Shown here: positions 1,813-40,228 of the stretch, piece by piece
Position numbering within the stretch: the first letter of the stretch is position 1
How the letters are laid out: every line of letters begins with the position of its first letter
Notes under the pieces: model-generated
Databases searched by the model: none
Told to the model about the DNA's origin: nothing
What the model saw: only the letters and a program-made list of their open reading frames with translations
Assembly (NCBI GenBank): GCA_041675185.1
Contig: JBAYUH010000003.1
Location: 1-56,288, forward strand
Origin: Candidatus Magasanikiibacteriota bacterium
Lineage (GTDB): Bacteria; Patescibacteriota; Patescibacteriia; Magasanikbacterales; UBA922
Reading direction: 5' to 3'
Length of the DNA stretch: 56,288 nt
Program-made: the position numbers and the translations under genes

Positions 1813-2418
1813 ATGTTCAACACTCATAACCCATTAGAACATCTTCGTCGTCGTTTCAAATTAATTTTTTTGGTTGGTTTTTTAGTAGCTCTTTTGTCAG
1901 TTGGTCTTACTTTTATTTTTCCGTTAGAGTATAGGGCTGATGCTCAAGTATTGATTATTTCCAAATCCAATAATGGTATAGATCCTTATACTTTGGTTCG
2001 TTCAGCTGAACGTGTTGGTGACAATGTTATCCAAGTTATGAAGACTGATGATTTTTACCAAAAAGTCAAAGCTCAAAAAAATTATGATATAGATTGGACA
2101 TTTTTTGAAAACAAAGGTGAAAGAGAAAAGCGCAAATTATGGCAAAAAACTTTAGTACCATCGGTTGTATATGGTACAGGAGTTTTGAATATTTCTACTT
2201 TTAGTACCAATTCAGACAATGCTGTGAAGTTAGCAGCTGCGTCTGCTGATGCTCTGGTTAGTCAAGGTTGGCAATATGTTGGTGGTGATGTGACAATGAA
2301 AGTTGTCAATAATCCAATAGCAACCAGATGGCCAGTGCGACCAAACATTGCTTTGAATGCTTTGCTTGGATTTATAGTTGGTACATTGTTTATGGGTTTG
2401 TTGGTGGTGAGGAAATAA
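1813..2418 (+). CDS. Wzz/chain-length-determinant-like polysaccharide co-polymerase (short form)
   Basis: N-terminal TM (LIFLVGFLVALLSVGLTFIF) followed by PLEYRADAQVLI, which is typical of Wzz N-terminal domains. Second TM at the extreme C-terminus (ALLGFIVGTLFMGLLVV). Confidence 0.6.
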   Translation: MFNTHNPLEHLRRRFKLIFLVGFLVALLSVGLTFIFPLEYRADAQVLIISKSNNGIDPYTLVRSAERVGDNVIQVMKTDDFYQKVKAQKNYDIDWTFFENKGEREKRKLWQKTLVPSVVYGTGVLNISTFSTNSDNAVKLAAASADALVSQGWQYVGGDVTMKVVNNPIATRWPVRPNIALNALLGFIVGTLFMGLLVVRK

Positions 2419-2970: not shown

Positions 2971-5900
2971 ATGTCTGAAACAAAAAGAAATAATATAGAG
3001 ATGTTTATTCCAGCGATAGAAAAAGAAAATTTGTTGGAATCCTATGATAATTTTTCTGAAAAAGTTAAACAATTATTAGTCAAAAGTGAAAAAGTAACAA
3101 AATTTTGTTCTGCAGTTTTGGATTTATTACATAGTACACCAGATGATTTGAATGAAAAATTAAAAAATAAGACTGAACTTGTAGAAGATTTGAAAAAAAT
3201 AACTTTTGAATTGAATACTATTTTTTTAGTTTTGGCAGGTAAAGAAGAGAAGAAAATTAATTTTAGTGTGGTTGTTGATAGATTAAATTATTTTGAAAAT
3301 AAAGTTGATTCTATAATGGGTGTAGTTCAAAATCCAGATCAAGAATATATTTCTTTTGTGGAAGATGAAAACAAAAATTATGTTCATGATGATTTTGATA
3401 ATGATAATTGGATGGGGGGGAAGCAAGAGCAAAAACCTACAATTCAAGAAGAAAATGATGTAAATGATAATGTCAGTAAACAAGTTGAACAAGAAAATGA
3501 AGAAGAGACTGAAATTGAAGAAAAAAGTGATTTTGTTGAAATCATAAAAAATGAAAATGATAATGAACAAGAAGAACCAGAAAAAGATATACACAAAGAA
3601 ACTCCAAAAAAATTAGGTTTTTTTAAAAAATTATTTAGTAAAGAAGGTAGACAAGAAATCAAAAAAGATGTAAAAAGTTTTGGAAAAGGATTGTTGAAAG
3701 CTTTACCAAATATGGCTTATAAGACAGCTACCTCTGTTTTTGGGGTAAAATTAGTTACTGATTCTGTTGGTTTGATTGTAGATAAAGTTACCAAAGGAAA
3801 AAACGGTTGGGGAGATTATGCTAAAATGTCCAAAAATAAATATGAACGTAAAGAAATTGAACAGACTTTTCGAGAAGCTTTTGAAGAAATATTAGTCAAA
3901 AATACCAAAGAAACAAAATCAGAAACTGAAACAACTGAAGCCAAAAGACCAAAAGAAATACTAGAAAAAATAGCAAAATTAGATGCTAAGATTGATTCTT
4001 CTCAGGCTTCAAATGAAGATAAAGTAAAATTAAAAGAAAAATTACATGAAATATTAGAACAAGATAATTTTTCCAAAAAAGAAGTTTATGAAGGTGTCAA
4101 AGAAAAAATAGCTGAAATCATCAAGACTTATACAGATAACAAACTATCTTTGATTACTGTCTTAAAAGATGCTTTGAATACAGCTGGTGTTGCTACTGGT
4201 CTTTTTGCTTTGCGTGGAGTGGCTTATGCTGGGACATCTATGGCCGAAAGGATAAGATCCAATAGATCAGAAAATAAAAAGAAAGAATTGGAAGGTAAAG
4301 AAAATGAAAAAGAAAGTACTATGAAAGATTTGTTTCTCAATTCTACAATAGAAACTTTACGTGGTTTAGGTTTTCAAGGTATCAAAAAAGATAGAACAAC
4401 ATTACAAAAAGGTGTTGATTTTGCCAAATCAGTAGGCACTATTCTTCGTGGTTTAGGTATTTACGGTGTTGCTTTTGGAGATACAGATATCGCTGGAGCT
4501 TTTCATAGATTAAGTAGTAATTTGGAAGAACATGGTTTGGCTAGTACTGTTGGACGTAATTTTGTAGATAATATAGAAAGAGTTTTTCATATTTCTCATG
4601 GTGATGAATTTAGGAAAACTTTAGCAGAACAACAAAAAGAAGTAGGTATGTTTGCTCAAAATATGGGTTTGACTGCAGCGACTTCTGTACATGAACAATT
4701 ACATGTTGGACAGAATATTCCTATTGTGGAACCTCGTAATAATATTGCAGAAAATATAGAAGTAAATCATGAGCCACAAATTTTTAGTCTGACAGTTACC
4801 AAAGGTGGTAGTGCTTGGGGAACTTTAGATAAGACTTTGGATAGTGACAATACTCCACAAGAATTTAAAAATATGTTTGTAGGTGACAAACATGTTGATT
4901 TTTCACAGTGGCGTGAAAAACAACTTCTTGATATGGGTTATCAAAAAGTAAACGGCCATTGGGGTTCACCATTTACTATTCATGCTGGAGCTGAAATGAA
5001 AGTATACAAAGGTGAAGATGGAGATTGGCATGCTAGATTTGATAAAGAACTCAAAGCTGTACATGCTGATACACATAGAGAATATCGTACAATCAATGTT
5101 CACAAAACTTTGCATTTTCAAAATGAAAATAAACATGATATTGCTGATACTAACAAAAATGAAATTGCAAACACCTTGAAAAAAATAGCAAATACCAAAG
5201 ATGTGAATTTTGATGAAAAGACTGGTGAGATTAGTTTGGTTGAGCATCATAATACTTCTCCAAATTTGGAGGTCCATACTGACCATTCACATATTTTGTC
5301 AACTGATAATACAGATCATCATGTAAAAATAGAATCTGGTACTAATTTTGAAACTAGTATTATACCAGCTAAACCAAGTTTTTTTGATGAGAGTCAAGTA
5401 ATTCATAATCAAACACATAATGTAGATCATGCAAATAACATTGAACATAATACATTATCTAACGGTCAAGCCAAAAAAGTAGAGACTACGAATATAACAT
5501 CAGAATTGAAATCTATGCAATCTGGTGTAAAAGATACAAAATCTGGTTTGATTGACAATGTGAGTACACATAAAGTGGGTGAAATAACTGCCAAAAAATT
5601 TAATACTAAAATAGAAAATATAGGATATGGTTTTGACGATAGTCCAGCTTCTGAATATGATGAACGCGGTATTTCAAAAGTAATGTATGATGTTGTCAAA
5701 GAGCGTATTATTTCTTCTCCTGATACTTTGTCAGAAGAAGCTAAGAATTTGATTGATGATAATCTTATGGATCCTGTAGAAAAGACAAGAGAATTGTCAG
5801 CTATGTTTGTGAACGAAGGTACTTTAACAGATTTGAGTCTAGAAGAGAAATTATTTTTGGGTGGAGATGATGTTTTTAATAATTCTCATGAATTTACAAG

Positions 5901-6126: not shown

Positions 6127-6148
6127 CTTTTTTATTGCTATTTAATTG

Positions 6149-6180
6149 AAAACAACCTAAGGAATGAGGTTGTTTTTGTT
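6149..6180 (+). terminator. rho-independent terminator after the 1051-aa gene
   Basis: aaaacaacct (6149-6158) pairs perfectly with aggttgtttt (6167-6176). The loop is 8 nt and a T-run follows. Confidence 0.7.
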
Positions 6181-6266
6181 GTTAGTTATATTTTTGTGGG
6201 TTAATACCCAATTTTATCATATTGGTGGTTCCAGTAGTTTAGAATCTTTCCTTCCTGTACATGCTA

Positions 6267-6295
6267 TTGACAAAATAGTCAAAATATGTTATATT
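6267..6295 (+). promoter_or_regulatory. sigma70-type promoter TTGACA-17 nt-TATATT
   Basis: ttgaca at 6267-6272, an exact 17-nt spacer, and tatatt at 6290-6295. It sits about 350 nt upstream of the ATG at 6644. Confidence 0.5.
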
Positions 6296-6301
6296 ATCCC
6301 G

Positions 6302-6643
6302 TTCTTTACTAAAGATTAATATATGGTTGTTTTGTGGGTTGAGATAGGGGATGAGAGATAGCTCTTGTTACTATCTCAGCTAACAAGCTGAAACTATTCT
6401 AGACTATGGCATATCTATGCTATAGACAGATAGATTCTTTACAATTTACCAGTGTGGCAAACACTAAAAATAAGCGATGTAGAGTGGGTTTCCCTACACG
6501 GTCAAGACTTAGTTATAATAAATATAGTTAGGTGTTGACCGTGTAGGAACCCCGCTGTGGGGTTTGAGACGACTGTCCGTCCTTCGGACGGCGATCATTC
6601 CTCACACGGGTGTTCGTGTTCTAAACTTTGGAGGTGTATTGTT
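6302..6643 (+). promoter_or_regulatory. long structured 5' leader (or independent ncRNA) upstream of the first island gene
   Basis: Overlapping alternative hairpins: gagatag/ctatctc (6355-6361/6371-6377) and cttgtta/taacaag (6364-6370/6381-6387). A 13-bp perfect stem at 6493-6505/6535-6547. GC hairpins at 6548-6564 and 6577-6591. The SD GGAGG lies at 6630-6634. Confidence 0.45.
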
Positions 6644-7267
6644 ATGAAAACCAGTATCAACAGTAATGTCATTATTCCTCAACAAGAAATCAAGTTGCCG
6701 ATGGCTTTGGTCATCGGCAATGACGACACCACAACGACGGCGCGTACCACCGTCAAAAATCATCAACGTGGCTGGTTCTTTGGTGTCCTTTGGACACTGG
6801 GAACACTCGTGGTTCTCACGATCATCGCTGCCCTCCTTTGGGGAGCATTGAGACCGCAGCCGGTTATCGTCGACTACTCGGGCGCTCTCGGGCGCATCGA
6901 GAGTAAGATCGAGGACGGCAGGATTGAGATTTCGACGGCGGCCAACTCCTCTGTAGAGGCGGCATTATTCTCTAAGAAGAATAATGACATTTTGATTCCT
7001 GTTGCCCATCGCGTAAATCGCGACGGCAAGATTCTTGACAGGGCCCTTGGCGTCACTTATGACGCGAATGGAGAAATTTCTTCCGTTCAGACGTTGGACG
7101 AGGTTCTGATGGCGGCCAACCGCGCGGCGACCGCCGCCGAGAAGCAACCGACCATCATCGTACGGCGCGTCGAAGCGGTCGACATGACCGAGACGAACTC
7201 GAGGCTCTCGGCCATTGAGAAGGCGTTGGCTCAGCCAACGACACCCACCCTCGAGCGGGTGGAGTAG
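6644..7267 (+). CDS. bitopic membrane protein, unknown function (island gene 1)
   Basis: ATG at 6644 lies 9 nt after GGAGG. The GTG-extended version from 6557 in the track would run through the leader hairpins. Single TM (WFFGVLWTLGTLVVLTIIAALLWGAL). GC-rich codon usage. Confidence 0.7.
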   Translation: MKTSINSNVIIPQQEIKLPMALVIGNDDTTTTARTTVKNHQRGWFFGVLWTLGTLVVLTIIAALLWGALRPQPVIVDYSGALGRIESKIEDGRIEISTAANSSVEAALFSKKNNDILIPVAHRVNRDGKILDRALGVTYDANGEISSVQTLDEVLMAANRAATAAEKQPTIIVRRVEAVDMTETNSRLSAIEKALAQPTTPTLERVE

Positions 7268-7484
7268 GTAGTAAGAGTGCCACACTGGTAAACCTGGAGG
7301 TCGTAGAAGGTCGAAGAAGCTTAATTGCTTTTTTGACTGGACACGACCTCTAGGAATCCAGTACATTACACTGATTACATAGATTGTAAGAGATTATATG
7401 GAATTAGACAAATATTAAAATTAGCTAGATAACAAATATTTCGTGTCATAAGACTTATGACGTGAGATATGTGCTATCCAGCAC

Positions 7485-7706
7485 AAAATGTTCATTACAA
7501 TTTACTAATTTTTTGAGACTAAATATAGACAGAAGAGTATTTTTCTTTTGGTTTTGGGAAAATCTAGTGTGGTAAGGGAAAGAGTAATAAAGGTTTTTAT
7601 AATTCTTTCCCTTATCGCACTTAGCCGCCCCGCTCGGGGCAAATGACCCGCGTGGCGGGACGGTAAGGTTTTTTCAACTTCAGATCAAGAGAGAGGAGGT
7701 GTATAT
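7485..7706 (+). promoter_or_regulatory. structured 5' leader of island gene 2, paralogous to 6431-6643
   Basis: Shares the following with leader 1: ttacaatttac, agtgtggYaa, a long stem with an AT-rich loop (18 bp, 7566-7583/7604-7621), the ccccgctNgggg hairpin (7627-7640), a second GC hairpin (7647-7659), and GGAGGTGTAT before the ATG. Confidence 0.5.
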
Positions 7707-8462
7707 ATGATGAGCGCGATTTCGCGCTTTGTCATGACGCTGGGTCTGTGCGTTATGGCTCTCGTCGCGATTAGCGGCGAGGCGAAAGCAGACAGTTGGG
7801 TTGAGACCTATCGGACCGTGTGTCCGACAGGGTCAAAGACCCTCAATGTAACTTGTACTCGCGAAGGCGAGGAAGTTATATTGCGATTTGGCTGTGGGGG
7901 TCAGATTGCAACTTACACCTACACTTGCCAACACCCCAAGTTGGCAACAACATCGTTGCTTCCTAAGATCACCGAGGACAACTGGTTCGATTACCAGCTC
8001 GGCCTTCACACCAGTGGCGTTTTCGCCACCGGAGAGCTTCCACAGATGTTTTACATCGGTGGTGAGTTTTCCGCTCAGCTCAAACTGAGTGGGAAGTGGT
8101 GGATTTCTGGGTCACTCGGCTTGGGCTATGCCCGAGTTGATGGTGATAACATTTCTCTCACAGAAAGCTTCGGACTTCAGTACCGTATCAATACGGACTG
8201 GAATCTTGGGCTCGTCGCGCGCCACTACGTGGTGCTTGATGGTGAGGGTGATGTGCTCCAGGTGATCCTGCCCACTGTGGAGATTGTGTACAATGTTTCC
8301 AAAGGTCTGCAAGTCGTCTTGAACGGCGGTGCAGGCTGGGGACATTTCCGGGTGAGCGAGCGTATTTCAGCTGAGTCCTCTGTGGCTCCTTCTGAGTATA
8401 CAACGATCACTCGCGACGATCTCGTCGGGACGTTGGGACTGAACCTGAGGGCTAAGTTCTAA
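7707..8462 (+). CDS. secreted protein: Cys-rich N-domain plus 8-stranded outer-membrane-type beta-barrel (OmpX/OmpW/OMP_b-brl-like) (island gene 2)
   Basis: Signal peptide MMSAISRFVMTLGLCVMALVAISGEAKA. Eight amphipathic beta-strand-like segments, including FDYQLGLHT, WWISGSLGLGYARV, WNLGLVARHYVV and LVGTLGLNLRAKF. The terminal residue is Phe. Confidence 0.7.
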   Translation: MMSAISRFVMTLGLCVMALVAISGEAKADSWVETYRTVCPTGSKTLNVTCTREGEEVILRFGCGGQIATYTYTCQHPKLATTSLLPKITEDNWFDYQLGLHTSGVFATGELPQMFYIGGEFSAQLKLSGKWWISGSLGLGYARVDGDNISLTESFGLQYRINTDWNLGLVARHYVVLDGEGDVLQVILPTVEIVYNVSKGLQVVLNGGAGWGHFRVSERISAESSVAPSEYTTITRDDLVGTLGLNLRAKF

Positions 8463-8582
8463 TCAACGGTGAGCGAGGTTGTAGTCAGATACCTCGTCAA
8501 AAAAATCTGGCACAGTTCAAATTTTAGAGTTTCTGTCTATTTTTTGCAAAAGGTGGCGCTCCAGCCTTAAAATGGAGCTTGG

Positions 8583-10238
8583 ATGAAAATGAAGAATGGT
8601 ATGTTCAGTTTCGTGGTCATGGCGTTTTTCGCTATGGCTTTCTCGACCATCAGTGCTTGCGCTGACGGTCAGGGTATCAACACGCCGGCGACGTCTGTCG
8701 CTGGTCTCAACGCGGACGGGACTGGTCCCGCAGACAACTGCGAGGCAGTCTACAATCCGCCTAGTGTGAGGTTGGGAAAGAGTTGTGTTGTCGTAGCTGA
8801 CTGTAACAGTGTTGCACCGTTGTTGAAGTCAGGGGCTTCTGCTCCAGTGTTCTGTGTTACGCAGAACGAGGTAGATGACTTTGGCTGGTCACAGGTTCTT
8901 GTGGGGCAGTGCGTTGCACAGCTCGACACGGACGGTGACGCGGCTGGTGACGAGTGTGACGACGATGACGATGGTGACCTCATCAAGGACGCCGTCGACA
9001 ATTGCCCGCTGGTTACTAACCATGATCAGCTCAACACCGACCACGATGGACTTGGCGACGCCTGTGATCCCGACGACGACAACGACGGGATCCTCGATGG
9101 TGTTGACAACTGTCCGCTGGTGGAGAATGCCAATCAGCTCGACACGAACACTGATGGGGTTGGCGATGCGTGCGAGGATGACTCGGATGGCGACGGTATT
9201 CTGAATAATACCGATAACTGTCCGTTTGTGGCGAATGTTGATCAACTCAATTCCGATGATGATCTGATGGGCGACGCCTGTGATCCCGACGACGACAACG
9301 ACGGGATCCTCGACGCCGCTGACAATTGTCCGCTGGTGGCGAATGCCAATCAGCTCGACACTGACGGCGACAGTTTCGGTGATGTCTGCGATCCAGACAT
9401 CGATGGCGACACAGTACTCAACGGTGTCGACAACTGCCCGCTTGTTGCCAACCATGGTCAGCTCGACACTGACGGCGACAGTTTCGGTGATGTCTGCGAT
9501 CCAGACATCGATGGCGACACAGTACTCAACGGTGTCGACAACTGCCCGAACGTTGCTAATTTTGATCAATCAGATCTTGACAACGACAGTTTCGGTGATG
9601 TCTGCGATCCTGACTGCGACGGCGACGGCACCGTTGCGCCATGCAACGCCGACTCGGATGGCGACGGTTTCATTCCTCCTGCTGATTGTATGGAGGGTGA
9701 GGCGTCGGTTCATCCGGGTGCGACTGAGCTCTGCAACGGTGTTGACGACGACTGCGATGGTGTAACCGACGATGGCTGTCCGGCTCCCGCCTGCGTTACT
9801 GCCACCGAATGTGATGATGGTATCGCAACGAACACTGACACTTGCGTCAGCGGGGTGTGTGTACATACTCCGTTGCCGCCGGCTGGCACGTGTTTGGTGA
9901 ATGCTGATTGTCTAAGTACCGAAGCGTGTATTGCTGGGATTTGCCGACTCAAAGCAGCTCCTGGTCAATGTTCGCCTTTCGCCGTCACGGTGAAAGGGAT
10001 GACGACACCGTCGGTCAAAAAGGCATATCTTGAATGGTATACCACCTCGGCCAATCCCGCACCCACAAGGAACGGGGTAGTCGAAGATGGAACGTATCAG
10101 TCATTTGCTGGCGAATGCTCAGTTATCGCGTTTGATTTCGCGGTGGGTGAGTGTGGCTGTCATACTGCCTTTGGGGATTCTCCGTGTAAGGAGCTTCCTG
10201 ATTCACCTGGCCTCGTCGGATGCCGGCATAATCAGTAG
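8583..10238 (+). CDS. lipoprotein with six thrombospondin type 3 (calcium-binding DxDxDG...DNCP) repeats and a Cys-rich C-terminal region with a CNGVDDDCDG motif (island gene 3)
   Basis: Signal peptide with lipobox ISAC (Cys26). Six 36-aa units contain DNCPxVxNxxQxDxDxDxxGDxCDxDxDxDG. ELCNGVDDDCDGVTDDGC follows the repeats. Confidence 0.8.
   Translation: MKMKNGMFSFVVMAFFAMAFSTISACADGQGINTPATSVAGLNADGTGPADNCEAVYNPPSVRLGKSCVVVADCNSVAPLLKSGASAPVFCVTQNEVDDFGWSQVLVGQCVAQLDTDGDAAGDECDDDDDGDLIKDAVDNCPLVTNHDQLNTDHDGLGDACDPDDDNDGILDGVDNCPLVENANQLDTNTDGVGDACEDDSDGDGILNNTDNCPFVANVDQLNSDDDLMGDACDPDDDNDGILDAADNCPLVANANQLDTDGDSFGDVCDPDIDGDTVLNGVDNCPLVANHGQLDTDGDSFGDVCDPDIDGDTVLNGVDNCPNVANFDQSDLDNDSFGDVCDPDCDGDGTVAPCNADSDGDGFIPPADCMEGEASVHPGATELCNGVDDDCDGVTDDGCPAPACVTATECDDGIATNTDTCVSGVCVHTPLPPAGTCLVNADCLSTEACIAGICRLKAAPGQCSPFAVTVKGMTTPSVKKAYLEWYTTSANPAPTRNGVVEDGTYQSFAGECSVIAFDFAVGECGCHTAFGDSPCKELPDSPGLVGCRHNQ
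9351..9548 (+). repeat. perfect 90-bp tandem duplication (period 108 bp) inside the TSP3-repeat gene
   Basis: 9351-9440 and 9459-9548 are identical (cagctcgacactgacggcgacagtttcggtgatgtctgcgatccagacatcgatggcgacacagtactcaacggtgtcgacaactgcccg). A second shared block, ggcgacgcctgtgatcccgacgacgacaacgacgggatcctcga, occurs near 9053 and 9270. Confidence 0.9.
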
Positions 10239-10477
10239 TAGACATCGCAGTCTCATAAATTAGTAAAAACTGACCCTTGAAATAGGGTCCACCTGTTCAA
10301 AGATTCCAAAAACGTATTACAGTTACGTCTAGGAGGAGAGCAAGAGGTCGTGTGGACCGCTTTAAACAAAACACAACTAAGAGGGGGATGGGATTTCAGA
10401 CTGTAACTGAAATCCCTACCATATTACGCTTTTATAAATTTTATGAAGGTGTTGAGGGTAAAAATATAAATAATGAA

Positions 10478-10508
10478 ACAGTAACTTGCAATGAGTTGCT
10501 GTTTTTTT
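10478..10508 (+). terminator. rho-independent terminator closing the island transcript
   Basis: acagtaact (10478-10486) pairs with agttgctgt (10494-10502), including one G-U pair. Seven T residues follow. A second 8-bp hairpin lies at 10509-10527. Confidence 0.65.
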
Positions 10509-10577
10509 ATACTCAGTTTCTGAGTATCGCATTTATCATTTTGAAAAAAAACAAAAATATGGTAATATCTAAGTATT

Positions 10578-12065
10578 ATGATAGGTAACATTTTCCTTTA
10601 TTTACCAAATAATTTTATAGGCCTTTTTTTGTTATTGGTCATTTTTGTTTTAACTTTTCTGTTGATTTTTAAATTGAATAAAAGTGAATGGATTATTTAT
10701 ACTTTGCTTGTTTGGTTTCCTCTCGAGAGTCTTATTCTAATGTATACGCCAATTGAATTTTTTGCTTATGTAAAATATATCCCTGAAATTATCATGTATG
10801 GTCTGGCATTTGGTTCATTGATTTCTTATATCAAGGATAAAAGAAAAATTTTACCAAAACAACCTCTCAACAAATGGCTTATTGCTTTTGTGGTAGTAGC
10901 GCTCATTTCTTTATTACTAAATTTTTATAGTTGGACTACTTGGCTTCTGGGTTTGAGACAAATATTACGTTTTGTTTTGTTGGTATTTGTAATTTTGTGG
11001 ATGGATTATGATGAAAAAATTCTAAAGAAGATTATCAAATTTGGTGCAACAATGATTGCTTTGGAAATAATTTTGGGTTTTGTACAGTATTTATCTGGTG
11101 GATATTTGGATCCTTATTTATTTTCTTCACGTACTGTCAGTATTGGTAATTTGGCGTTACTTGGAGGACTAGAAGAGTTTTGGACACAAGGTAGTCGAGT
11201 ATTTGCTACGCTTGGTAGATATGATCAGCTTGGTAGTTTTGTAGCTTTGGGTATTATTTTGATGTTTCCATTTGTATTTTTTTTGAAAAAAAGACAAGAT
11301 AAATTTTGGTATTTTATTTTTTTTATTTTGGCTTTTGTAGTACTTTATCTTACTAAATCTCGTGCTAGCTGGATTGCAACTTTTCTTGGTGTTGTGACAA
11401 TTGGTTGGTTTTTGCGTAAAGACAAAAGAGTGGCTTTGGGTATTGGTGTGTTTTTGACTATTTTTGTGGCATATTTAGGTTTTTTTGCACTTAGTCATGA
11501 TAATGTCTTGTCTATTGGTGATAAACCAACCCAAACTTTGGGTGAGCGTGTATTTGAAGCTTTTAGTATTCAGGGTTTGCGAGATAGTTATGATGGTTAT
11601 GGTAGAATATTTTTTATCATAAATACTCCACGTATGGTGGTTACTAAGTATCCTTTTTTTGGTGTTGGTCCTGGACAATATGGTGGGGGAGTTGCAGCAG
11701 CACTTCTCAATACTGATATGTATGATAGATTGCATTTACCTTTTGGTATTCAAAATATTTTTGGACAAATAGACAACAATTGGATGAGTATTTGGGGTGA
11801 AGTTGGGACTATTGGTCTGATTGTTTGGATAATGGTATTTGTGACTATTATTAAGATGTCTTTGTTAGTTAGAAATAAGACAGAAAATATTTTTGAAAAA
11901 AATTTGGCTGAAGGATTGATTGGTTTGACAGTTGGTATTATGGCAATAGGATTTTTTGGACCATATTTTGAATTTAGATCGTTGATGTTTTATTATTGGG
12001 CGACAGTGGGGGTTGTGATGGTGTTTTTTGTTCGGAGGTATAATAAAAATTATTTGGAAAATTAA
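10578..12065 (+). CDS. O-antigen ligase/polymerase (Wzy_C)-like polytopic membrane protein
   Basis: 495 aa with at least 10 TM helices. The central LTKSRASWIA segment and a large loop resemble Wzy_C/O-antigen ligase proteins. Confidence 0.6.
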   Translation: MIGNIFLYLPNNFIGLFLLLVIFVLTFLLIFKLNKSEWIIYTLLVWFPLESLILMYTPIEFFAYVKYIPEIIMYGLAFGSLISYIKDKRKILPKQPLNKWLIAFVVVALISLLLNFYSWTTWLLGLRQILRFVLLVFVILWMDYDEKILKKIIKFGATMIALEIILGFVQYLSGGYLDPYLFSSRTVSIGNLALLGGLEEFWTQGSRVFATLGRYDQLGSFVALGIILMFPFVFFLKKRQDKFWYFIFFILAFVVLYLTKSRASWIATFLGVVTIGWFLRKDKRVALGIGVFLTIFVAYLGFFALSHDNVLSIGDKPTQTLGERVFEAFSIQGLRDSYDGYGRIFFIINTPRMVVTKYPFFGVGPGQYGGGVAAALLNTDMYDRLHLPFGIQNIFGQIDNNWMSIWGEVGTIGLIVWIMVFVTIIKMSLLVRNKTENIFEKNLAEGLIGLTVGIMAIGFFGPYFEFRSLMFYYWATVGVVMVFFVRRYNKNYLEN

Positions 12066-12233
12066 TATAAATAAACTATAATTAGACAATAACTTGACGA
12101 TAACTAACAAAAACAATAAGATCACTAGTTTTTGTATCGTTATAGTTTCATTATCGTATAATTATTTAAATTTGATAATAACTAAACAACAACTATTTAG
12201 TAACTATTAACAATAACTATTATAATATAAAAT

Positions 12234-12589: not shown

Positions 12590-13609
12590 ATGAACAAAAA
12601 AAAATTACAACACAAAACAATATCTCCAATCGACTGTGTCCTTGGTATCACTTACAATTGTAATTCTCGTTGTGTGATGTGTGATATTTGGAAAATAAAA
12701 GATTTTCCTGAATTACCAGTGGCAGAGTACAAAAAATTACCAAGTTCTTTGCGCGATATCAATATTTCTGGTGGTGAGCCTTTTTTGCGTGGAGATATTC
12801 CAGAGATAATTGCTACTGTTAAGAAAGCAGCTCCTAAAGCTCGAATGGTTATCTCGACCAATGGTTTCATGCCAGTCTTGATTGAAAAACAAATGAAAGA
12901 AATATTGAAAATCAAACCAGATATTGGTATTGCTATTTCTGTTGATGGTTATGGAAAGACTCATGAGGAAATTCGTAAAATTCCCAATGCTTGGGAAAAA
13001 GATATGGAAACTCTAGAAAGATTACAAAAATTAGGTATGAAAAATTTGCGTCTAGCTTTCACTATCTTGCCACAAAATATACAAGATTTTGGTAAAGTTT
13101 ATGACGAAACTAGAAAGCGTGGTATTCAGTTTACGCATGCTTTTGCACAGAGCTCAGAACATTATTTTGGTGGCAGTAACAATGATAATAATAAACCAAA
13201 TTTGGATATATTGAAGGCACAATATAAATATCTTATAAATGGCGAACTAAAATCTTGGCACCCAAAGAAATGGGTGAGAGCTTTTTTTGCTCATGGTCTA
13301 TACAAATTTAGTATTGAAAAAACTCAAGTTTTGAACAATGATCCTGGTACGAAGTTTTTTTATCTTGATCCACGTGGTGTAGTCTATCCTTCAGTAGTAC
13401 ACAATTATCCAATGGGTAATATCCAAAATTATGACAAGTGGAATGATTTGTGGTATGGTGAAACTGCAGAAAAAGCTAGAGAAAAAGTAGTAACCATTGG
13501 TCGGCCAGCTTGGATGATTTGTACAGCTAGGACAGCTATTAGGAAAAATCCTCACAAAGTGGTGAAATGGATAATCCAAAATAAAGTTGGGGGAATGAGG
13601 GATTTGTAA
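12590..13609 (+). CDS. radical SAM protein
   Basis: CNSRCVMC (CX3CX2C) near the N-terminus, followed by the SGGEPFLR glycine-rich SAM motif. Confidence 0.8.
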   Translation: MNKKKLQHKTISPIDCVLGITYNCNSRCVMCDIWKIKDFPELPVAEYKKLPSSLRDINISGGEPFLRGDIPEIIATVKKAAPKARMVISTNGFMPVLIEKQMKEILKIKPDIGIAISVDGYGKTHEEIRKIPNAWEKDMETLERLQKLGMKNLRLAFTILPQNIQDFGKVYDETRKRGIQFTHAFAQSSEHYFGGSNNDNNKPNLDILKAQYKYLINGELKSWHPKKWVRAFFAHGLYKFSIEKTQVLNNDPGTKFFYLDPRGVVYPSVVHNYPMGNIQNYDKWNDLWYGETAEKAREKVVTIGRPAWMICTARTAIRKNPHKVVKWIIQNKVGGMRDL

Positions 13610-13643
13610 CAAACAATAATTATAAGGTCACTAGCTATTGTCT

Positions 13644-13783
13644 AGTTATAGTTTAATCCGCCCAAGGCGGACAAGGTTTAATTCCTCGTAGTTTCAGCCA
13701 GAGGACTGATCAGCCTTGGGCACGATACTGCGAAATAATCCAATTGATACATTGTCAGCTTGCTGCGAGGTAGTTCATTTATC
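13644..13783 (-). repeat. dispersed structured repeat, family 1 (long variant)
   Basis: aatccgcccaaggcggacaaggtttaattcctcg is identical to 42434-42467. Relative to that copy it carries a roughly 31-nt internal insertion, and the insertion is homologous to 17631-17698 in the opposite orientation. Confidence 0.8.
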
Positions 13784-13862
13784 GTGTTGTTATTAATTTT
13801 GTTGGAGTCTAATTAGATTATAATTAAACAAAAACTATACAATAACTATTTTTTTTGAAATT

Positions 13863-15065
13863 ATGAAAATACTGTTGGTAAACAAATATTGGTACATAAA
13901 AGGCGGGGCAGAACGTGTGGTTTTTGCTACCAAAAAAGTGTTGGAAGATGCTGGTCATGAAGTAGAGATTTTTGGTATGAAACATCCAAAAAATATTTTT
14001 GAAAATAAATATTTTATTGATAATATTGATTATGGTAATACTAAAGGTTTAAGAAAGATAATAGTGGGTATTAAGAGTATTTATAATTGGGATGCAAAAA
14101 ATAAATTTGCAGATTTAATTGATAAGTTTAAGCCAGATATAGTACATTTTCATAATATTTATCATCAATTGTCTTTTTCTCTTTTGGATGTTGTCAAAGA
14201 AAAAAAAATTCCTGCGGTGATGACTTTGCATGATTACAAAATGATTAGCCCAAATTATAATCTTTTTAATAATGGAAAGATCTTTGAACAGAGTTGTGGT
14301 AGTAATTATTATAAATGTATTTTGAATAATTGCATGGGAAATTTTGGACAAAGTGTACTTGCGACCTGTGAGGCTTATTTGAGAAAATGGAAAAAATGGA
14401 ATCATAATGTGAAAATGTATATAAGTTCAAGTAATTTTTTGAAAGAAAAATTTTTGTCTGTAGGTTTTGTAGAAAAAATAGAAGTAGTGTCAAATCCTTT
14501 GGTTGATTTTTCTACTGAAAATATTTTAGTAGGTGGCAAAAATGTATTATATATGGGCAGACTTTCTGAAGAAAAAGGTGTTGAATTAGTTTTAAAAGTA
14601 GCAAAACAATTGCTAGATATAAAATTCCAAATAGTGGGAGACGGTCCATTGAAAAAATATTTACAAACAGTTATTGAAAAGGAAAATATAAAAAATGTAG
14701 AAATACTTGGTTATCAATCTAGTGATATTTTACATAATACCTTGGAAAAAGCTAGAATTCTTATAATGCCTTCGCAGTGGTATGAAAATTGTCCTTTGAG
14801 TGTACTCGAAGCTCATGCTGCAGGTAAAGTGATCTTAGCAAGTAATTTGGGTGGTTTGGTAGAAATGGTTCCAAAAGATATGTTAGTTGATCACAAAAAT
14901 ATAGAACAATGGGTATCTATGGTTCAAAATTGGTATAAAAAATCAGATGAAGAACTGAAAAAAATAGGTATAGAGTTAAGAGCTAGAGTGTTTAACGAAA
15001 ATGATTTGTCTACGTATTACAAAAGAATTATTAAGTTATACGAAAAAGTAGTAAAGTCGTTATAA
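13863..15065 (+). CDS. glycosyltransferase family 4
   Basis: MKILLVNKYWYIKGGAERV N-terminus. C-terminal EX7E-type region PSQWYENCPLSVLEAHAAGKVILAS. Confidence 0.85.
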   Translation: MKILLVNKYWYIKGGAERVVFATKKVLEDAGHEVEIFGMKHPKNIFENKYFIDNIDYGNTKGLRKIIVGIKSIYNWDAKNKFADLIDKFKPDIVHFHNIYHQLSFSLLDVVKEKKIPAVMTLHDYKMISPNYNLFNNGKIFEQSCGSNYYKCILNNCMGNFGQSVLATCEAYLRKWKKWNHNVKMYISSSNFLKEKFLSVGFVEKIEVVSNPLVDFSTENILVGGKNVLYMGRLSEEKGVELVLKVAKQLLDIKFQIVGDGPLKKYLQTVIEKENIKNVEILGYQSSDILHNTLEKARILIMPSQWYENCPLSVLEAHAAGKVILASNLGGLVEMVPKDMLVDHKNIEQWVSMVQNWYKKSDEELKKIGIELRARVFNENDLSTYYKRIIKLYEKVVKSL

Positions 15066-19646: not shown

Positions 19647-19675
19647 TTGACTTTTTTTGGAAAATGTAGTATATT
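19647..19675 (+). promoter_or_regulatory. sigma70-type promoter TTGACT-17 nt-TATATT upstream of tRNA-Glu
   Basis: ttgact at 19647-19652, a 17-nt spacer, and tatatt at 19670-19675. Confidence 0.5.
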
Positions 19676-19724: not shown

Positions 19725-19796
19725 GGCCCGTTCGTCTAGTGGCTAGGACGCTAGGTTCTCATCCTAGTAACAGGAGTTCGATTCTCCTACGGGCTA
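19725..19796 (+). tRNA. tRNA-Glu (anticodon CTC)
   Basis: Cloverleaf folded by hand. Acceptor ggcccgt/acgggct. D-arm ttcgtctagtggctaggacg is typical of tRNA-Glu. Anticodon stem ctagg/cctag with loop ttCTCat. T-arm ggagttcgattctcc. No encoded CCA. Confidence 0.9.
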
Positions 19797-19897
19797 CAGT
19801 AGAAAATTACAATTTAAAATAAACAAATTCCAAATAAATTATAGTAAACAACAGTTTTAATTTGTAATTTGTAAATTGTTATTTGTATATTTCAAAT

Positions 19898-37438: not shown

Positions 37439-39574
37439 TTATTCTTCTTCTTGTAAAATATATTCATAAACCCAAACTCTACCATTGTCTAGCTCCCACC
37501 AATTGTCAGCATCTACTTTGGCATCATCACGAATCTGAGCAGCTGGACTCCAATAATCAGTGTGGATGAAATAAGCTTTTCTGACTCCAGCAAATTTCAT
37601 GGCTTCTTCCATTGGTTGTCTCTGGGCTTTGACATAAGCCATTTGTCTGAAATATTGATAAAGTGGACCGCCAGTTGGAATAGAATAAAAATATTGCAAA
37701 CCTTGTGAAGTTGGTAAATAACCATCGAAACCAAATTCTGTTAAGGCTGCTGTAGCTACTGCTTGATTGGTGAGAACTATATAATCTTTTTTATTATTAT
37801 TTCTATCAACAATAAATTTTACAGCTATTAAATCAGCTTTTCTCAAATTTTGTCCAGTATATAGTGAAATATTGTCACGAGTCGGGTAGGTAAAAAACCA
37901 GGAGAGTAGAAGTGATAAAGCTAAAAAAATAGATACAAGAATTTGCCAGCTTATTTTGTTTTTTAGTTTTATAAATATTTCTCTAATAGCAATAATAAAA
38001 AACGGTAGAAATAAAATCAAACTTAAATCTAATAATCTAGTACCATATAATTTTTGGTCATAAGAAATTACATCTTTGAATTTTATAGAAGTGATAATCA
38101 AGAAAGACGATGTAGTGAGTGCCAAAAAAGTACTGATGAAAAAGTAAGTGATATTTTGTTTGTATTTTTTTAGAGCTAGGAAAATACCAAAGATAATGAT
38201 TATTATTATTAGGGGTTTCAAAATATCGCGATAATAATACAAAAGTTTTAATAATTTTGGACCACGTTCAATGAAGATATATTGTGGTCTAGCAAAAATA
38301 TTAAAAAAAACTTTAGCATTTTGAAAAGTATTTTGCCAAATTAAAGATCCTTTGTTGAATATAGAATTTAAGTATAGAGCAAAAGGAACAGTAAATGTGA
38401 GAATAAGAATGTACAGCGGATAAAATATTTTTTTGAAATTAGCATATATTTTTTTATAGATAATAGAAGCCAAATAAATTACAAATATTGGTAGACCGAT
38501 GAGTGGGTGTATCGTAGTAGTTAGTATATTGAGTAAAACACCAAAAATATTGGTTTGTATATCACTATGTTTATTTTCATACCAGATCCAAGAGGTTGTA
38601 ATGAGAGAAATAAGTAACGCCAAATTATTTGGTGTGGTAAATATAAAAAAGTTGAGCGGTATCAAAGAAATTAGAAGTAATGCTGGGTATATTTTATTTT
38701 TAAAATTATTTTTTGTGAGGGCAAAATAAAAACAAAGTGGAATAGCGACAGAAGCTAATATTGGGACTATACTTCTGTCCAGCCAAGAGATGTTTAATTT
38801 AGTAATAAAATTTGTAGAGACAACCCACATATATTGTCCGATATAATAAGGTTGTTTTGGAGCAATGAACAGATGTTCTCTTATCCATTTTTCAGTAGCT
38901 TCGTGAACGTGTGGATCAAAACCATAACCATATTTGAAAACAAAAAAAGCTACGTTCAAAATAATAGCTGTGTGGAGTATGATAAGTAATAGGTTGGTTT
39001 TTTGGTTTTTTGATCTTTGTAAAAAAAATAATAAAAGAGCTGAAACTAGAAAGAAAAGTATAAAAATTTTATTACTAAAAAGTGTCCAAGGTGAAATGAT
39101 AGTCTCGTCATAACGATGACTTATAAGAATTGTCAGTATAGTGATTTGTCCAATAAAAATTATGATAGCTAAAATATTTTTTTTTAGATAGTCTGATATT
39201 TGTTTTGTAGTTATTTGTTTTTTTTTGAAAATAATAAAATCTTCTATAGTATTTTTTCTACACAGGTATGAAATTGTAATAGAAGTAAATATGAAGGTAA
39301 AAGAGATAGTAGCCTGGTCTATTTGGTAAAACCAGTAGATAATAGACAATAAAGAAGTGGTCACCGCAATAAGACCTATGGTTCCAAAAAATAGCTTCCA
39401 AAATGAGTTTTCCTGTTTGATAAAACAAATACCAAAAGAATAGCCAAAAAAGGCTATATATAAAACATAAGCCAAAGTTCCTAAAATAGGATTTGTTGTG
39501 TACCATGTTGCTAAGAGTAAAAGGGTTGTAATAAGGGTTGCAAGCGTGGTATACTTTTTGAATAGTGTTGTCAT
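37439..39574 (-). CDS. large polytopic membrane protein with C-terminal soluble domain (GT-C-like architecture; paralog of 40225-42405)
   Basis: 711 aa. More than 12 hydrophobic helices, then a soluble tail of about 150 aa. Its stop codon directly abuts the stop of the convergent GT4 gene (taatta at 37436-37441). Confidence 0.7.
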   Translation of the reverse strand: MTTLFKKYTTLATLITTLLLLATWYTTNPILGTLAYVLYIAFFGYSFGICFIKQENSFWKLFFGTIGLIAVTTSLLSIIYWFYQIDQATISFTFIFTSITISYLCRKNTIEDFIIFKKKQITTKQISDYLKKNILAIIIFIGQITILTILISHRYDETIISPWTLFSNKIFILFFLVSALLLFFLQRSKNQKTNLLLIILHTAIILNVAFFVFKYGYGFDPHVHEATEKWIREHLFIAPKQPYYIGQYMWVVSTNFITKLNISWLDRSIVPILASVAIPLCFYFALTKNNFKNKIYPALLLISLIPLNFFIFTTPNNLALLISLITTSWIWYENKHSDIQTNIFGVLLNILTTTIHPLIGLPIFVIYLASIIYKKIYANFKKIFYPLYILILTFTVPFALYLNSIFNKGSLIWQNTFQNAKVFFNIFARPQYIFIERGPKLLKLLYYYRDILKPLIIIIIIFGIFLALKKYKQNITYFFISTFLALTTSSFLIITSIKFKDVISYDQKLYGTRLLDLSLILFLPFFIIAIREIFIKLKNKISWQILVSIFLALSLLLSWFFTYPTRDNISLYTGQNLRKADLIAVKFIVDRNNNKKDYIVLTNQAVATAALTEFGFDGYLPTSQGLQYFYSIPTGGPLYQYFRQMAYVKAQRQPMEEAMKFAGVRKAYFIHTDYWSPAAQIRDDAKVDADNWWELDNGRVWVYEYILQEEE

Positions 39575-39604: not shown

Positions 39605-40228
39605 ATGTCTTTTATCAAGGATTTCAAAGATAAGAATTTTGATTTGTTTGAATATCTACCAGCTACTGAAGTGCATCCACACGATCATTTTTTGGCTGTG
39701 ACAATTTTGCGTCTTTTGCCAAAGAACATTACTCCCAACAAAATTAGTTTATTTCGTATTTTTGCTACCCCTTTTGTTTTTTTGTTGATTTTTTTTGGGT
39801 ATTACAATGTTGGTGTTATCTGTTTTGTACTAGTAGCCTTCACTGATGCTATGGATGGATCACTTGCTAGAACACAAAATAAAATAACTAAATTCGGTAT
39901 GCTTACAGATCCTTTGGCTGACAAGCTCCTGATTGGCTCTATGGTACTACTTCTTGTATTTAAATATTTGGATTTTTGGTTGGGGATTGTGGTATTGGTT
40001 ATAGAAATTATTTTTATTATTGCGGCTTTTGTTTATCGTGTGAAGTTCAAGACTGTTCGTATGGCCAATCTGTGGGGGAAGATAAAAATGTTTTTGCAAG
40101 TATTGGCAATTTGTAGTGTGCTTATAGCTTTGGTTTTTGAAAATCAGACTTTTCTCAATATAGCCAATGTGATTTTGGGATTATCAGTAGGCTTTGCTTT
40201 AGTTAGTTTATTTCGGCATGGTATATGA
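39605..40228 (+). CDS. CDP-alcohol phosphatidyltransferase family protein
   Basis: DAMDGSLARTQNKITKFGMLTDPLADK matches the motif D-x2-DG-x2-AR-x8-G-x3-D-x3-D. Confidence 0.85.
   Translation: MSFIKDFKDKNFDLFEYLPATEVHPHDHFLAVTILRLLPKNITPNKISLFRIFATPFVFLLIFFGYYNVGVICFVLVAFTDAMDGSLARTQNKITKFGMLTDPLADKLLIGSMVLLLVFKYLDFWLGIVVLVIEIIFIIAAFVYRVKFKTVRMANLWGKIKMFLQVLAICSVLIALVFENQTFLNIANVILGLSVGFALVSLFRHGI

Follow-up and report, generated by a model that had tools for sequence, protein, structure and literature searches.

The O-antigen gene clusters are of low G+C content, the Opa proteins are hypervariable, and the vls locus of Borrelia burgdorferi, a surface-protein locus that evolves by recombination, has a G+C content of about 50% in a genome of about 28%; the mechanism of vls is gene conversion from adjacent silent cassettes, and the locus has a strong GC skew. 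Known replacement-type flexible islands for surface structures include the loci for O antigens and capsules in Enterobacteria and streptococci and the cell-wall island GI1 of Haloquadratum walsbyi (PMC4535781). Among bacteria of the Candidate Phyla Radiation (CPR), a hypervariable surface gene of a Gracilibacterium shares a repeat with a protein of its putative host; the authors of that study read its variability as the result of diversification pressure, possibly related to the host (PMC6851277). Here we analyze a GC-rich block of three genes in a 56,288-nt stretch of the genome of a Candidatus Magasanikiibacteriota bacterium (assembly GCA_041675185.1, contig JBAYUH010000003.1, positions 1 to 56,288), hereafter called the window. 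All coordinates refer to its forward strand; the three coding sequences (CDSs) of the block, or island, and their products are designated P1, P2 and P3, and the other genes of the same chromosome are referred to as host genes. The finding is real and unusual: the block is a conserved, hypervariable cassette locus for envelope proteins, insulated in its composition and in its translation signals. The whole explanation developed below, namely an old envelope locus of three cassettes that occupies a fixed slot, evolves fast and has its G+C content kept by selection, is given a probability of roughly 0.7.

Composition, codon usage and initiation signals of the block

The G+C content of the region 6340-10360 is 51.1%, against 31.2% in the remaining 52 kb of the window. 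Calculated over 300-nt intervals, it averages 52% inside the block and 31.2% outside it (standard deviation 4.0), where no interval exceeds 41%. The tetranucleotide distance of the block to the host profile is 0.069, approximately seven standard deviations away from that of 4-kb host segments (0.022 ± 0.006). The G+C content at third codon positions (GC3) is 0.57-0.67 in P1-P3 and 0.16-0.26 in the 29 other CDSs. Codon usage in the island genes is inverted relative to host genes across all codon classes: the share of C-ending codons among NNY codons is 0.56-0.86 in the island and 0.11-0.19 in host genes, and that of G-ending codons among NNR codons 0.70-0.95 and 0.15-0.23, respectively. Because the shift is equal in NNY, NNR and fourfold-degenerate codons and favours the rarest codons of the genome, ordinary translational optimization was rejected as its cause. 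As a separate observation, the window carries a tRNA-Glu gene (19725-19797) with the anticodon CTC, which reads GAG; G-ending NNR codons (Lys, Glu, Gln) account for 15% of host usage and 70% of that in the island genes.

The initiation signals are equally distinct. The Shine-Dalgarno (SD) site GGAGGTGTAT occurs exactly twice in the 56 kb (chance expectation 0.07), in both cases directly before the ATG of an island gene. When an SD core was defined as GGAG, GAGG or AGGA at positions -22 to -4, it was detected before all three island genes of the window and before 13 of 16 in related lineages (16/19 in total), as compared with none of 40 host CDSs in the window and one of 36 in the relatives (1/76; Fisher's exact test, p = 3e-14). 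The sole host-side exception, AGGAGG, precedes a KilA-N domain gene at 702-1082 of the related locus L013, beside a GIY-YIG gene; this KilA-N gene is probably a mobile or phage-derived insert. An earlier note on this DNA, made from the sequence alone, had drawn attention to an abrupt change in composition, to GC-ending codons in the three CDSs next to AT-ending codons in the flanking genes, to a ribosome-binding context shared by the first two island genes and to host genes devoid of it. All of these features hold in the present measurements, and its counts of G+C in two 60-nt lines (16 at 3001-3060 and 33 at 9001-9060) were reproduced exactly.

A fixed slot in related lineages

The same slot, bounded on the left by a gene for a giant surface protein and on the right by a Wzy_C (O-antigen-ligase-like) gene, is occupied in at least five further AT-rich Patescibacteria lineages. 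These are represented by the loci L005 (an NCBI Patescibacteria metagenome-assembled genome, MAG), L006-L011/L023 (among them an assembly of a groundwater metagenome), L013/L014 (two MAGs from NCBI), L015/L020 (the closest relative) and L016; their available source labels differ, for example groundwater metagenome, CG1_02 and STC_93/Sandtown MAG. The recurrent gene order in the contigs of P2 and full-length P3 relatives is Wzz, small genes, giant protein, GC-rich genes, Wzy_C, radical SAM and GT4, and homologues of the giant gene precede the island in L005, L006, L013, L016 and L020. The Wzy_C protein of the window is 72-73% identical to its homologue in L006 and 52% to that in L013. GC3 of the island genes in the relatives is 0.61-0.90, against about 0.17-0.38 in their flanks. 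The island was found in this slot in every related lineage recovered, and no empty slot was found among them. The surface-glycan setting described in the earlier note, with Wzz upstream and Wzy_C downstream, was thus recovered, and the comparison of synteny that it had proposed places the block at the same position throughout. Since both the slot and the composition recur in relatives, which is the outcome that the earlier note itself had named as a sign of an ancient resident locus, a recent transfer is unsupported; the block genuinely belongs to this Patescibacteria chromosome and has long resided there, although it may be of ancient foreign origin.

Between the window and L020, the Wzz proteins are 93% identical and the fourfold-degenerate sites of their genes have an identity of 0.58 (0.39 expected). 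The normalized retention of fourfold sites between the window and L015/L020 is approximately 0.31 for Wzz and 0.21-0.34 for P1-P3. This match to the flank indicates that the island has co-diverged with the chromosome, and since the P1-P3 proteins fell to 55-69% identity in the meantime, their ratio of non-synonymous to synonymous change (dN/dS) must be very high. Cassettes have also been replaced between lineages. In particular, L005 and L006 share 95.5% identity in Wzz, 59% in P2 and 45% in P3, and their P1 proteins are unrelated; fourfold-site identity is 0.90, 0.68 and 0.50 for Wzz, P2 and P3, respectively. In addition, P2 of L006 groups with that of L015 (77%), in conflict with the flank tree. 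The P2 family itself is mosaic, its N-terminal domain and its barrel recombining independently (P0130, P0139). Deep comparisons, such as those among L013, L016, L006 and the window, show saturation at synonymous sites, yet the G+C content at fourfold sites has stayed at 0.7-0.9. With CDSs or domains exchanged while the leaders stay conserved, and with a fixed slot, a divergent centre and trees incongruent with those of the flanks, the locus behaves, as judged from these alignments, like a replacement-type hypervariable surface locus.

Promoter, leaders and spacers

Each cassette follows the same plan, in which a long structured leader is followed by a strong SD site, a GC-rich CDS and then a 3' hairpin (Table 1). 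The promoter of the first cassette is of host type and invariant in L006, L015 and L011 (alignment A1). As the earlier note had pointed out, it has the same -10 hexamer as a tRNA promoter, TTGACT-17-TATATT at 19647-19675. It also closely resembles a host promoter on the minus strand at 16365-16337; the two share the extended consensus TTGACAAAA-N9-TnTATGyTATAwT, which may be the strong-promoter form of this organism. The proposal that host promoters drive the block is thus supported for the first cassette; a host-type promoter was identified before no other cassette.

Table 1. Coordinates of the genes, signals and predicted RNA structures of the GC-rich block and its borders.
Feature	Position	Strand	Remarks
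Wzz gene	1813-2418		upstream of block
Giant surface protein gene, 1051 aa	2971-6126	+	left flank, GC3 0.16; conserved left border of slot
Terminator-like hairpin ending giant gene	6147-6178	+	12-bp stem, then T-rich tail
Sigma-70 promoter of cassette 1, host type	6267-6295	+	TTGACA-17-TATATT, TG extended -10
P1 leader, ~345 nt, non-coding	6296-6643	+	contains SD site GGAGGTGTAT (6630-6639)
P1 leader motif TTACAATTTAC	6439-6449	+	
P1 leader 5' arm TTTACCAGTGTGGCA	6445-6459	+	
P1 leader hairpins	6493-6547; 6553-6620	+	long hairpin; GC hairpins
P1, 207 aa, putative single-pass membrane protein	6644-7267	+	GC3 0.67
P1-P2 intergenic module	7268-7706	+	RNAfold z = -10.5
3' arm TGCCACACTGGTAAA	7278-7292	+	P1-P2 module
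Long terminator-like hairpin	7293-7354	+	stem with two compensatory changes relative to L006
Boundary motif CATTACACTGAT	7364-7375	+	P1-P2 module
AT-rich hairpin; hairpin	7424-7482; 7566-7621	+	P1-P2 module
Motif TTACAATTTAC, second copy	7495-7505	+	P1-P2 module
GC hairpins CCCCGCTCGGGG and CCCGCGTGGCGGG	7628-7662	+	P1-P2 module
SD site GGAGGTGTAT of P2	7695-7704	+	P1-P2 module
P2, 251 aa, predicted exported protein	7707-8462	+	GC3 0.60
P2-P3 spacer	8463-8582	+	conserved hairpin with following A-run (8486-8510)
Hairpin CTCCAGCC..TGGAG	~8559-8579	+	overlaps weak SD site GGAG of P3
P3, 551 aa, predicted lipoprotein, lipobox ISAC	8583-10238	+	GC3 0.57
Right border	10239-10577	+	hairpins 10272-10289 and 10390-10420; terminator-like hairpin 10475-10505; promoter-like TTGAAA-16-TAATAT 10541-10568 before Wzy_C
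Wzy_C (O-antigen-ligase-like) gene	10578-12065	+	Pfam E = 9e-14; AT-rich; conserved right border

The P1 leader has a mean column identity of 80% with L006, L015 and L011, and the encoded P1 proteins are 51-55% identical. Its predicted folding is much stronger than that of shuffled controls (RNAfold z = -7.2), as is that of the P1-P2 module (z = -10.5), and nine pairs of the leader carry compensatory changes. A 15-nt complementarity (6445-6459/7278-7292) brackets P1 and co-varies, reading TTTACC/GGTAAA in the window and TTCACC/GGTGA in L006, with a U.G wobble in L015. The motif TTACAATTYAC is found in one copy before each of cassettes 1 and 2 in three lineages, CATTACACTGAT is located after the 3' hairpins, and GC-rich hairpins stand immediately upstream of the SD sites. 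The P2-P3 spacer has a mean column identity of 77% among the window, L005, L006 and L015 (alignment A3), and over the alignments A1-A3 this value ranges from 67 to 80%. In L005, a homologous leader drives a different CDS. The frame of a small open reading frame (ORF) within the P1 leader (6406-6531) is not kept in L006 or L015 (alignment A1), and this ORF was therefore discarded as a gene. Dispersed repeats were also rejected, as the non-coding modules have no second copy in the window. The Rfam search gave no match for the leaders at the gathering threshold, and its E-value mode returned only spurious microRNA and snoRNA hairpins.

These results modify the description of the AT-rich segments in the earlier note, which had taken them for host-like spacer. 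Their low G+C content was confirmed (29.4% at 6181-6340, 28.7% at 7360-7620 and 34% at 10240-10577); as conserved, island-specific and structured segments, however, they are better regarded as putative regulatory modules integral to the island than as anonymous host-like sequence. In L005, the island is separated from Wzy_C by two elements that have no counterpart in the window, namely an AT-rich non-coding stretch of 1.5 kb (12740-14225), which holds tandem GATACTGATGT-like repeats of the cassette boundary motif, and a gene for a 251-aa protein with a weak Peptidase_Mx1 match (14226-14981).

Public annotations of L006 show minus-strand ORFs of 247 and 472/508 aa (8252-8995 and 10676-12202; the same in L007-L010) over the P1 and P3 homologues. 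An inversion or shufflon, suggested by these calls together with the perfect 15-nt inverted repeat around P1, was rejected, as tblastn places all genes on the plus strand in every locus, in agreement with the translation of the ORFs. The minus-strand calls are antisense ORF artefacts of GC-rich DNA, gene callers trained on an AT-rich genome failing on the block.

Predicted products of the island genes

In P1, an N-terminal region is followed by one transmembrane helix (approximately residues 72-97) and then by an extracytoplasmic domain, about 110 aa long, at the C-terminus. It has no family match in Pfam, PHROG or NCBIfam. Three homologues were detected among 5.8 billion proteins, and both of those that could be placed (P0006 in L015 and P0007 in L011) are encoded in islands. 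In L005, the P1 position holds unrelated transmembrane/coiled-coil proteins.

The P2 sequence begins with a signal peptide, MMSAISRFVMTLGLCVMALVAISGEAKA, followed by DS, with a cleavage site read by eye between AKA and DS. It continues with a four-stranded N-terminal domain with four cysteines (residues 31-73), a variable linker and a predicted eight-stranded beta-barrel (94-250), and ends in LGLNLRAKF, the terminal F being invariant in an alignment of 21 sequences. The AlphaFold2 model obtained with this alignment has a predicted local distance difference test score (pLDDT) of 88.9, and of 95-98 in the barrel; with four sequences the pLDDT was 53, and the prediction became reliable with 21. 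The top Foldseek matches of the model in the PDB are the OmpA transmembrane domain, NspA, Ail, OmpW and OpcA (E = 1e-5 to 6e-4, probability 1.0), with modest TM-scores of 0.4-0.55 per target. At the sequence level, Pfam matches remained below the cut-offs (PF13505, OMP_b-brl, E = 0.065, 13.8 vs 28.7 bits; PF03797, Autotransporter, 19.4 vs 26), and a profile search of the PDB returned nothing under E = 0.4. P2 is therefore best modelled as a small OmpA/NspA/Ail-like eight-stranded barrel with a disulfide-rich N-terminal domain. Three other P2 clusters were detected among the 5.8 billion proteins, and a profile search of 1.84 billion cluster representatives yielded 20 P2-like proteins only.

P3 contains about six 36-aa thrombospondin type 3 (TSP3) Ca-binding repeats, which correspond to 108-nt units in the DNA (8919-9643). 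It also has a Cys-rich segment, CxxDDDCDG, and a Cys-rich domain at its C-terminus. The start codon of its relatives aligns with the second ATG, at 8589. The Pfam TSP_3 family (PF02412) matches in six stretches (E = 5.4e-58, 192.8 bits against a cut-off of 25), and the score against the NCBIfam cell-cell cohesion protein MtsC (NF047638), 227.9 bits, is below the cut-off of 350. No MYXO-CTERM was evident on reading the C-terminus, which ends in GCRHNQ. Full-length homologues were found only in Patescibacteria or in metagenomic contigs. Two of the 108-nt units, at 9351-9566, are near-identical, and L001, a contig from another assembly of what is probably the same population, lacks one of them (9350-9457), so that its P3 has 515 instead of 551 aa; this reflects either a collapse of the repeat during assembly or real variation in copy number. 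Strain-level hypervariability, suggested by a BLAST identity of 99.2% between L001 and the window, was rejected, since global alignment shows the missing 108-nt repeat to be the sole difference; L001, L002 and L004, probably all from one population with the window, match it exactly save for this one repeat.

Elsewhere the window has the gene content of an ordinary bacterial chromosome and encodes UvrA, UvrC, MraZ, RsmH, a Clp ATPase, DnaB, MurA, PBP2, a PilT-type ATPase and many glycosyltransferases. Two ORFs of the glycan region, 37439-39574 (minus strand, 711 aa) and 40225-42405 (plus strand, 726 aa), have no Pfam match at E <= 1e-5.

Proposed selection on the G+C content and competing explanations

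According to the explanation that we favour, the three cassettes would encode Sec-exported products, with P1 as a single-pass membrane protein, P2 as a beta-barrel and P3 as a lipid-anchored Ca-binding TSP3-repeat protein, which would act together as a complex at the cell surface or in contact with the host (adhesion), subject to diversifying selection. The G+C content and the SD sites would be kept by selection on transcripts or on translation, candidate targets being the stability and structure of the mRNA or a separately controlled translation class. Selection of this kind is favoured by elimination of the alternatives. Polarized synonymous changes are balanced in L005, L006 and L015 as well as in the host genes of the window, whereas the window island shows 127 GC>AT against 9 AT>GC changes. 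P3 synonymous sites that are A/T in two other lineages are G/C in 71-79% of cases in L005, 62-64% in L015 and 56% in L006. The same test on P2, which is noisier (n = 9-16), gave 50, 11 and 27%, respectively, and the window gave 0-45% across P3 and P2. The GC bias is at substitution equilibrium in the relatives and appears weaker or eroding in the window lineage; the window island is either eroding or at a lower G+C equilibrium, near-saturation preventing a firm choice between the two.

Several points weigh against this explanation. The proposed functions of the products are deduced solely from their predicted fold and their signal sequences. An outer membrane is thought to be absent from Patescibacteria (PMC12102498), which makes the role of a classical outer-membrane barrel problematic, and no BAM (BamA/Omp85) or Lol genes are visible in the 56 kb; the P2 barrel could insert into the outer membrane of a partner cell or into an unrecognized outer layer of the symbiont. 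In a subgroup of Parcubacteria, the 16S rRNA is reported to be devoid of the anti-SD sequence (PMC9297842), and the 16S rRNA gene, which bears on the use of SD sites by the organism's own ribosomes, is absent from the window. Near-saturation and the differing base composition of the lineages weaken the polarized-substitution tests, and selection of G/C-ending codons in every class, the rarest included, is without an established rationale. Moreover, the 16 remote P2 relatives may include a GC-rich reservoir. Finally, the megahit and Logan contigs that are identical to the window probably derive from the same population, so the comparative argument is the stronger one, and independence rests on the other lineages.

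The alternative that best survives, although we consider it rather unlikely, is continual import, whereby CDS cassettes would be replaced by homologous recombination anchored in the leaders or flanks and fed from a GC-rich reservoir (GC-rich Patescibacteria, host bacteria or an unseen mobile element). It is in keeping with the demonstrated cassette replacement and tree incongruence, with leaders far more conserved than CDSs and with a window island that resembles a decaying import. It also agrees with the amino acid composition of the P2 family, all 20 members of which are of GC-rich type (GARP/FYMINK 1.1-3.0 vs 0.33-0.84 in host proteins), and with the location of one remote member on a 470-kb contig. 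However, the flux in L005, L006 and L015 is balanced and A/T has been converted to G/C in place, which is unexpected after import into an AT-biased genome and argues against pure import followed by decay. The reservoir would furthermore need to carry the same AT-rich leaders, and searches of genome, metagenome and viral collections yielded no sequence from such a reservoir.

A variant for which we see little probability is that the clade keeps a small, separate class of genes, marked by inverse codons and SD sites in a genome that otherwise has neither. Their diderm-type envelope products (a beta-barrel, a lipoprotein and a membrane anchor) would act on or within the outer membrane of a diderm partner cell that is GC-rich. 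The coding style would then be selected for coupling expression to this partner or to a particular state of translation; taken to its extreme, the genes would be transferred to the partner and expressed there.

The G+C content would be a by-product if a regional process were at work, such as GC-biased gene conversion at a hot spot of recombination or a local bias in repair or mutation. The locus does recombine, and all codon classes are about equally enriched, in both G and C, as a non-translational force would produce. The intra-island spacers (77-1486 nt), however, have 30-48% G+C, with 100-nt minima of 12-35% (12-26% in AT-rich lineages), and their indel-rich, fast-changing parts are no exception; only the CDSs show the GC-ward bias. 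The giant gene next to the island evolves equally fast, with 49.5% identity between the window and L020 (Wzz being 93% identical) and a protein length of 1051 to 1779 aa in complete copies, and its GC3 is 0.16-0.22 in AT-rich lineages (0.38 in L016). The AT-rich spacers and this fast-evolving but AT-rich gene argue against a regional bias, which we consider improbable; like continuing import, it seems less likely than selection.

The earlier note had proposed a recent lateral acquisition from a GC-rich diderm, possibly the organism on which the bacterium lives, with the genes now under host promoters. The foreign-looking composition, codon usage and SD sites fit this proposal, as do the diderm-type envelope proteins (a beta-barrel with C-terminal Phe and a lipoprotein), the TSP3 repeats of P3, which are 55-67% identical to those of Myxococcota and Proteobacteria proteins, and the GC>AT direction of synonymous change in the window lineage, which is that of amelioration. 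It is the recency and the donor that fail. Homologues equally or more GC-rich, with the same leaders, sit at the same locus in at least five other AT-rich lineages and span deeper divergences, and at synonymous sites the island has diverged from its closest relative to the same degree as the flank. No integrase or transposase was found in or beside the block, the nearest tRNA gene is 9 kb away, and no att repeat was found at the borders, which show merely weak AT-rich chance repeats. The search for a donor by protein homology found none, P1 and P2 having no homologue outside islands among the 5.8 billion proteins, nor in any GC-rich genome found, and only the TSP3 repeats of P3 matching diderms. 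A recent acquisition is accordingly very improbable. A phage or mobile origin was rejected as well, with no PHROG match for P1-P3, no IMG/VR relative and no integrase.

An assembly or binning artefact joining a foreign GC-rich fragment to an AT-rich contig, to which the sharp composition steps, a homologous fragment in a Micrarchaeota bin and the splitting of the region into three contigs in a megahit assembly of probably the same population could point, is practically negligible; the earlier note had called a simple two-junction chimera less likely. The arrangement recurs in independent assemblies from other lineages and samples, a host-type promoter precedes the island, and in that assembly (ERZ27247358), sequence-identical to the window apart from one 108-nt repeat, L004 reaches from the giant gene over the left junction in composition as far as 7011, L001 covers 7049-10513 and L003 starts at 10532, so that the breaks (7011/7049 and 10513/10532) lie away from the composition junctions at ~6340 and ~10360. 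The Micrarchaeota fragment, L017 (MNVH01000037.1, 1-4981), is a 5-kb piece of island with 54% G+C that was deposited as part of the MAG 'Candidatus Micrarchaeota archaeon CG1_02_55_22'. Its identity to L015/L020 is 99.5%, and on its left side L020 continues into AT-rich DNA of Patescibacteria, where Wzz is 93% identical to that of the window; to judge from this match, the fragment was evidently mis-binned by composition.

Significance and comparison with known systems

An inverse codon usage with its own initiation signal, kept past synonymous saturation, is not predicted by simple amelioration theory, and the locus offers a concrete system in which to ask what besides mutation bias sets base composition in the tiny genomes of symbionts. 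Predicted barrels of outer-membrane type, in a phylum thought to lack an outer membrane and beside a giant surface protein and glycan genes, are prime candidates for the attachment machinery of groundwater Patescibacteria. Furthermore, the island defeats standard pipelines, and because of mis-binning, as in the Micrarchaeota case, and of wrong-strand gene calls, such loci are systematically being lost from CPR genomes.

Like the replacement islands for surface structures, the locus has a fixed slot between conserved genes, putative surface products, alleles more divergent than the flanks, exchange by homologous recombination and an atypical G+C content. Unlike them, it carries three small protein genes rather than glycan-synthesis operons, and its deviation is toward high G+C, extreme (GC3 0.8-0.9 vs 0.2) and confined to CDSs. 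Gene-specific SD sites, conserved structured leaders and an inverted codon usage maintained in place set it further apart.

With regard to the products, P2 resembles the OmpA transmembrane domain, OmpX/Ail, NspA, Opa, OmpW and OpcA in its eight predicted antiparallel strands, signal peptide and terminal Phe, and several of its best structural matches are adhesins or invasins. It differs from diderm barrels in having no significant sequence match to them, short loops throughout, an N-terminal Cys-rich beta domain and a host phylum thought to be without an outer membrane (PMC12102498). P3 resembles the TSP3 surface and cohesion proteins (NF047638 MtsC; OmpA-family proteins with TSP3) as a predicted exported array of Ca-binding repeats, but falls short of MtsC itself (228 vs 350 bits), with a lipobox N-terminus instead of MYXO-CTERM and a different C-terminal Cys-rich domain.

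With vls the block has in common a G+C content far above that of an AT-rich genome and evolution by recombination. In contrast to vls, no silent cassettes are visible in the 56 kb and the GC skew inside the island is unremarkable. With the Gracilibacterium gene the island shares a CPR bacterium and a locally hypervariable extracellular protein, whereas in that case the variation concerns the number and sequence of repeats in one gene, and not a compositionally distinct multi-gene cassette.

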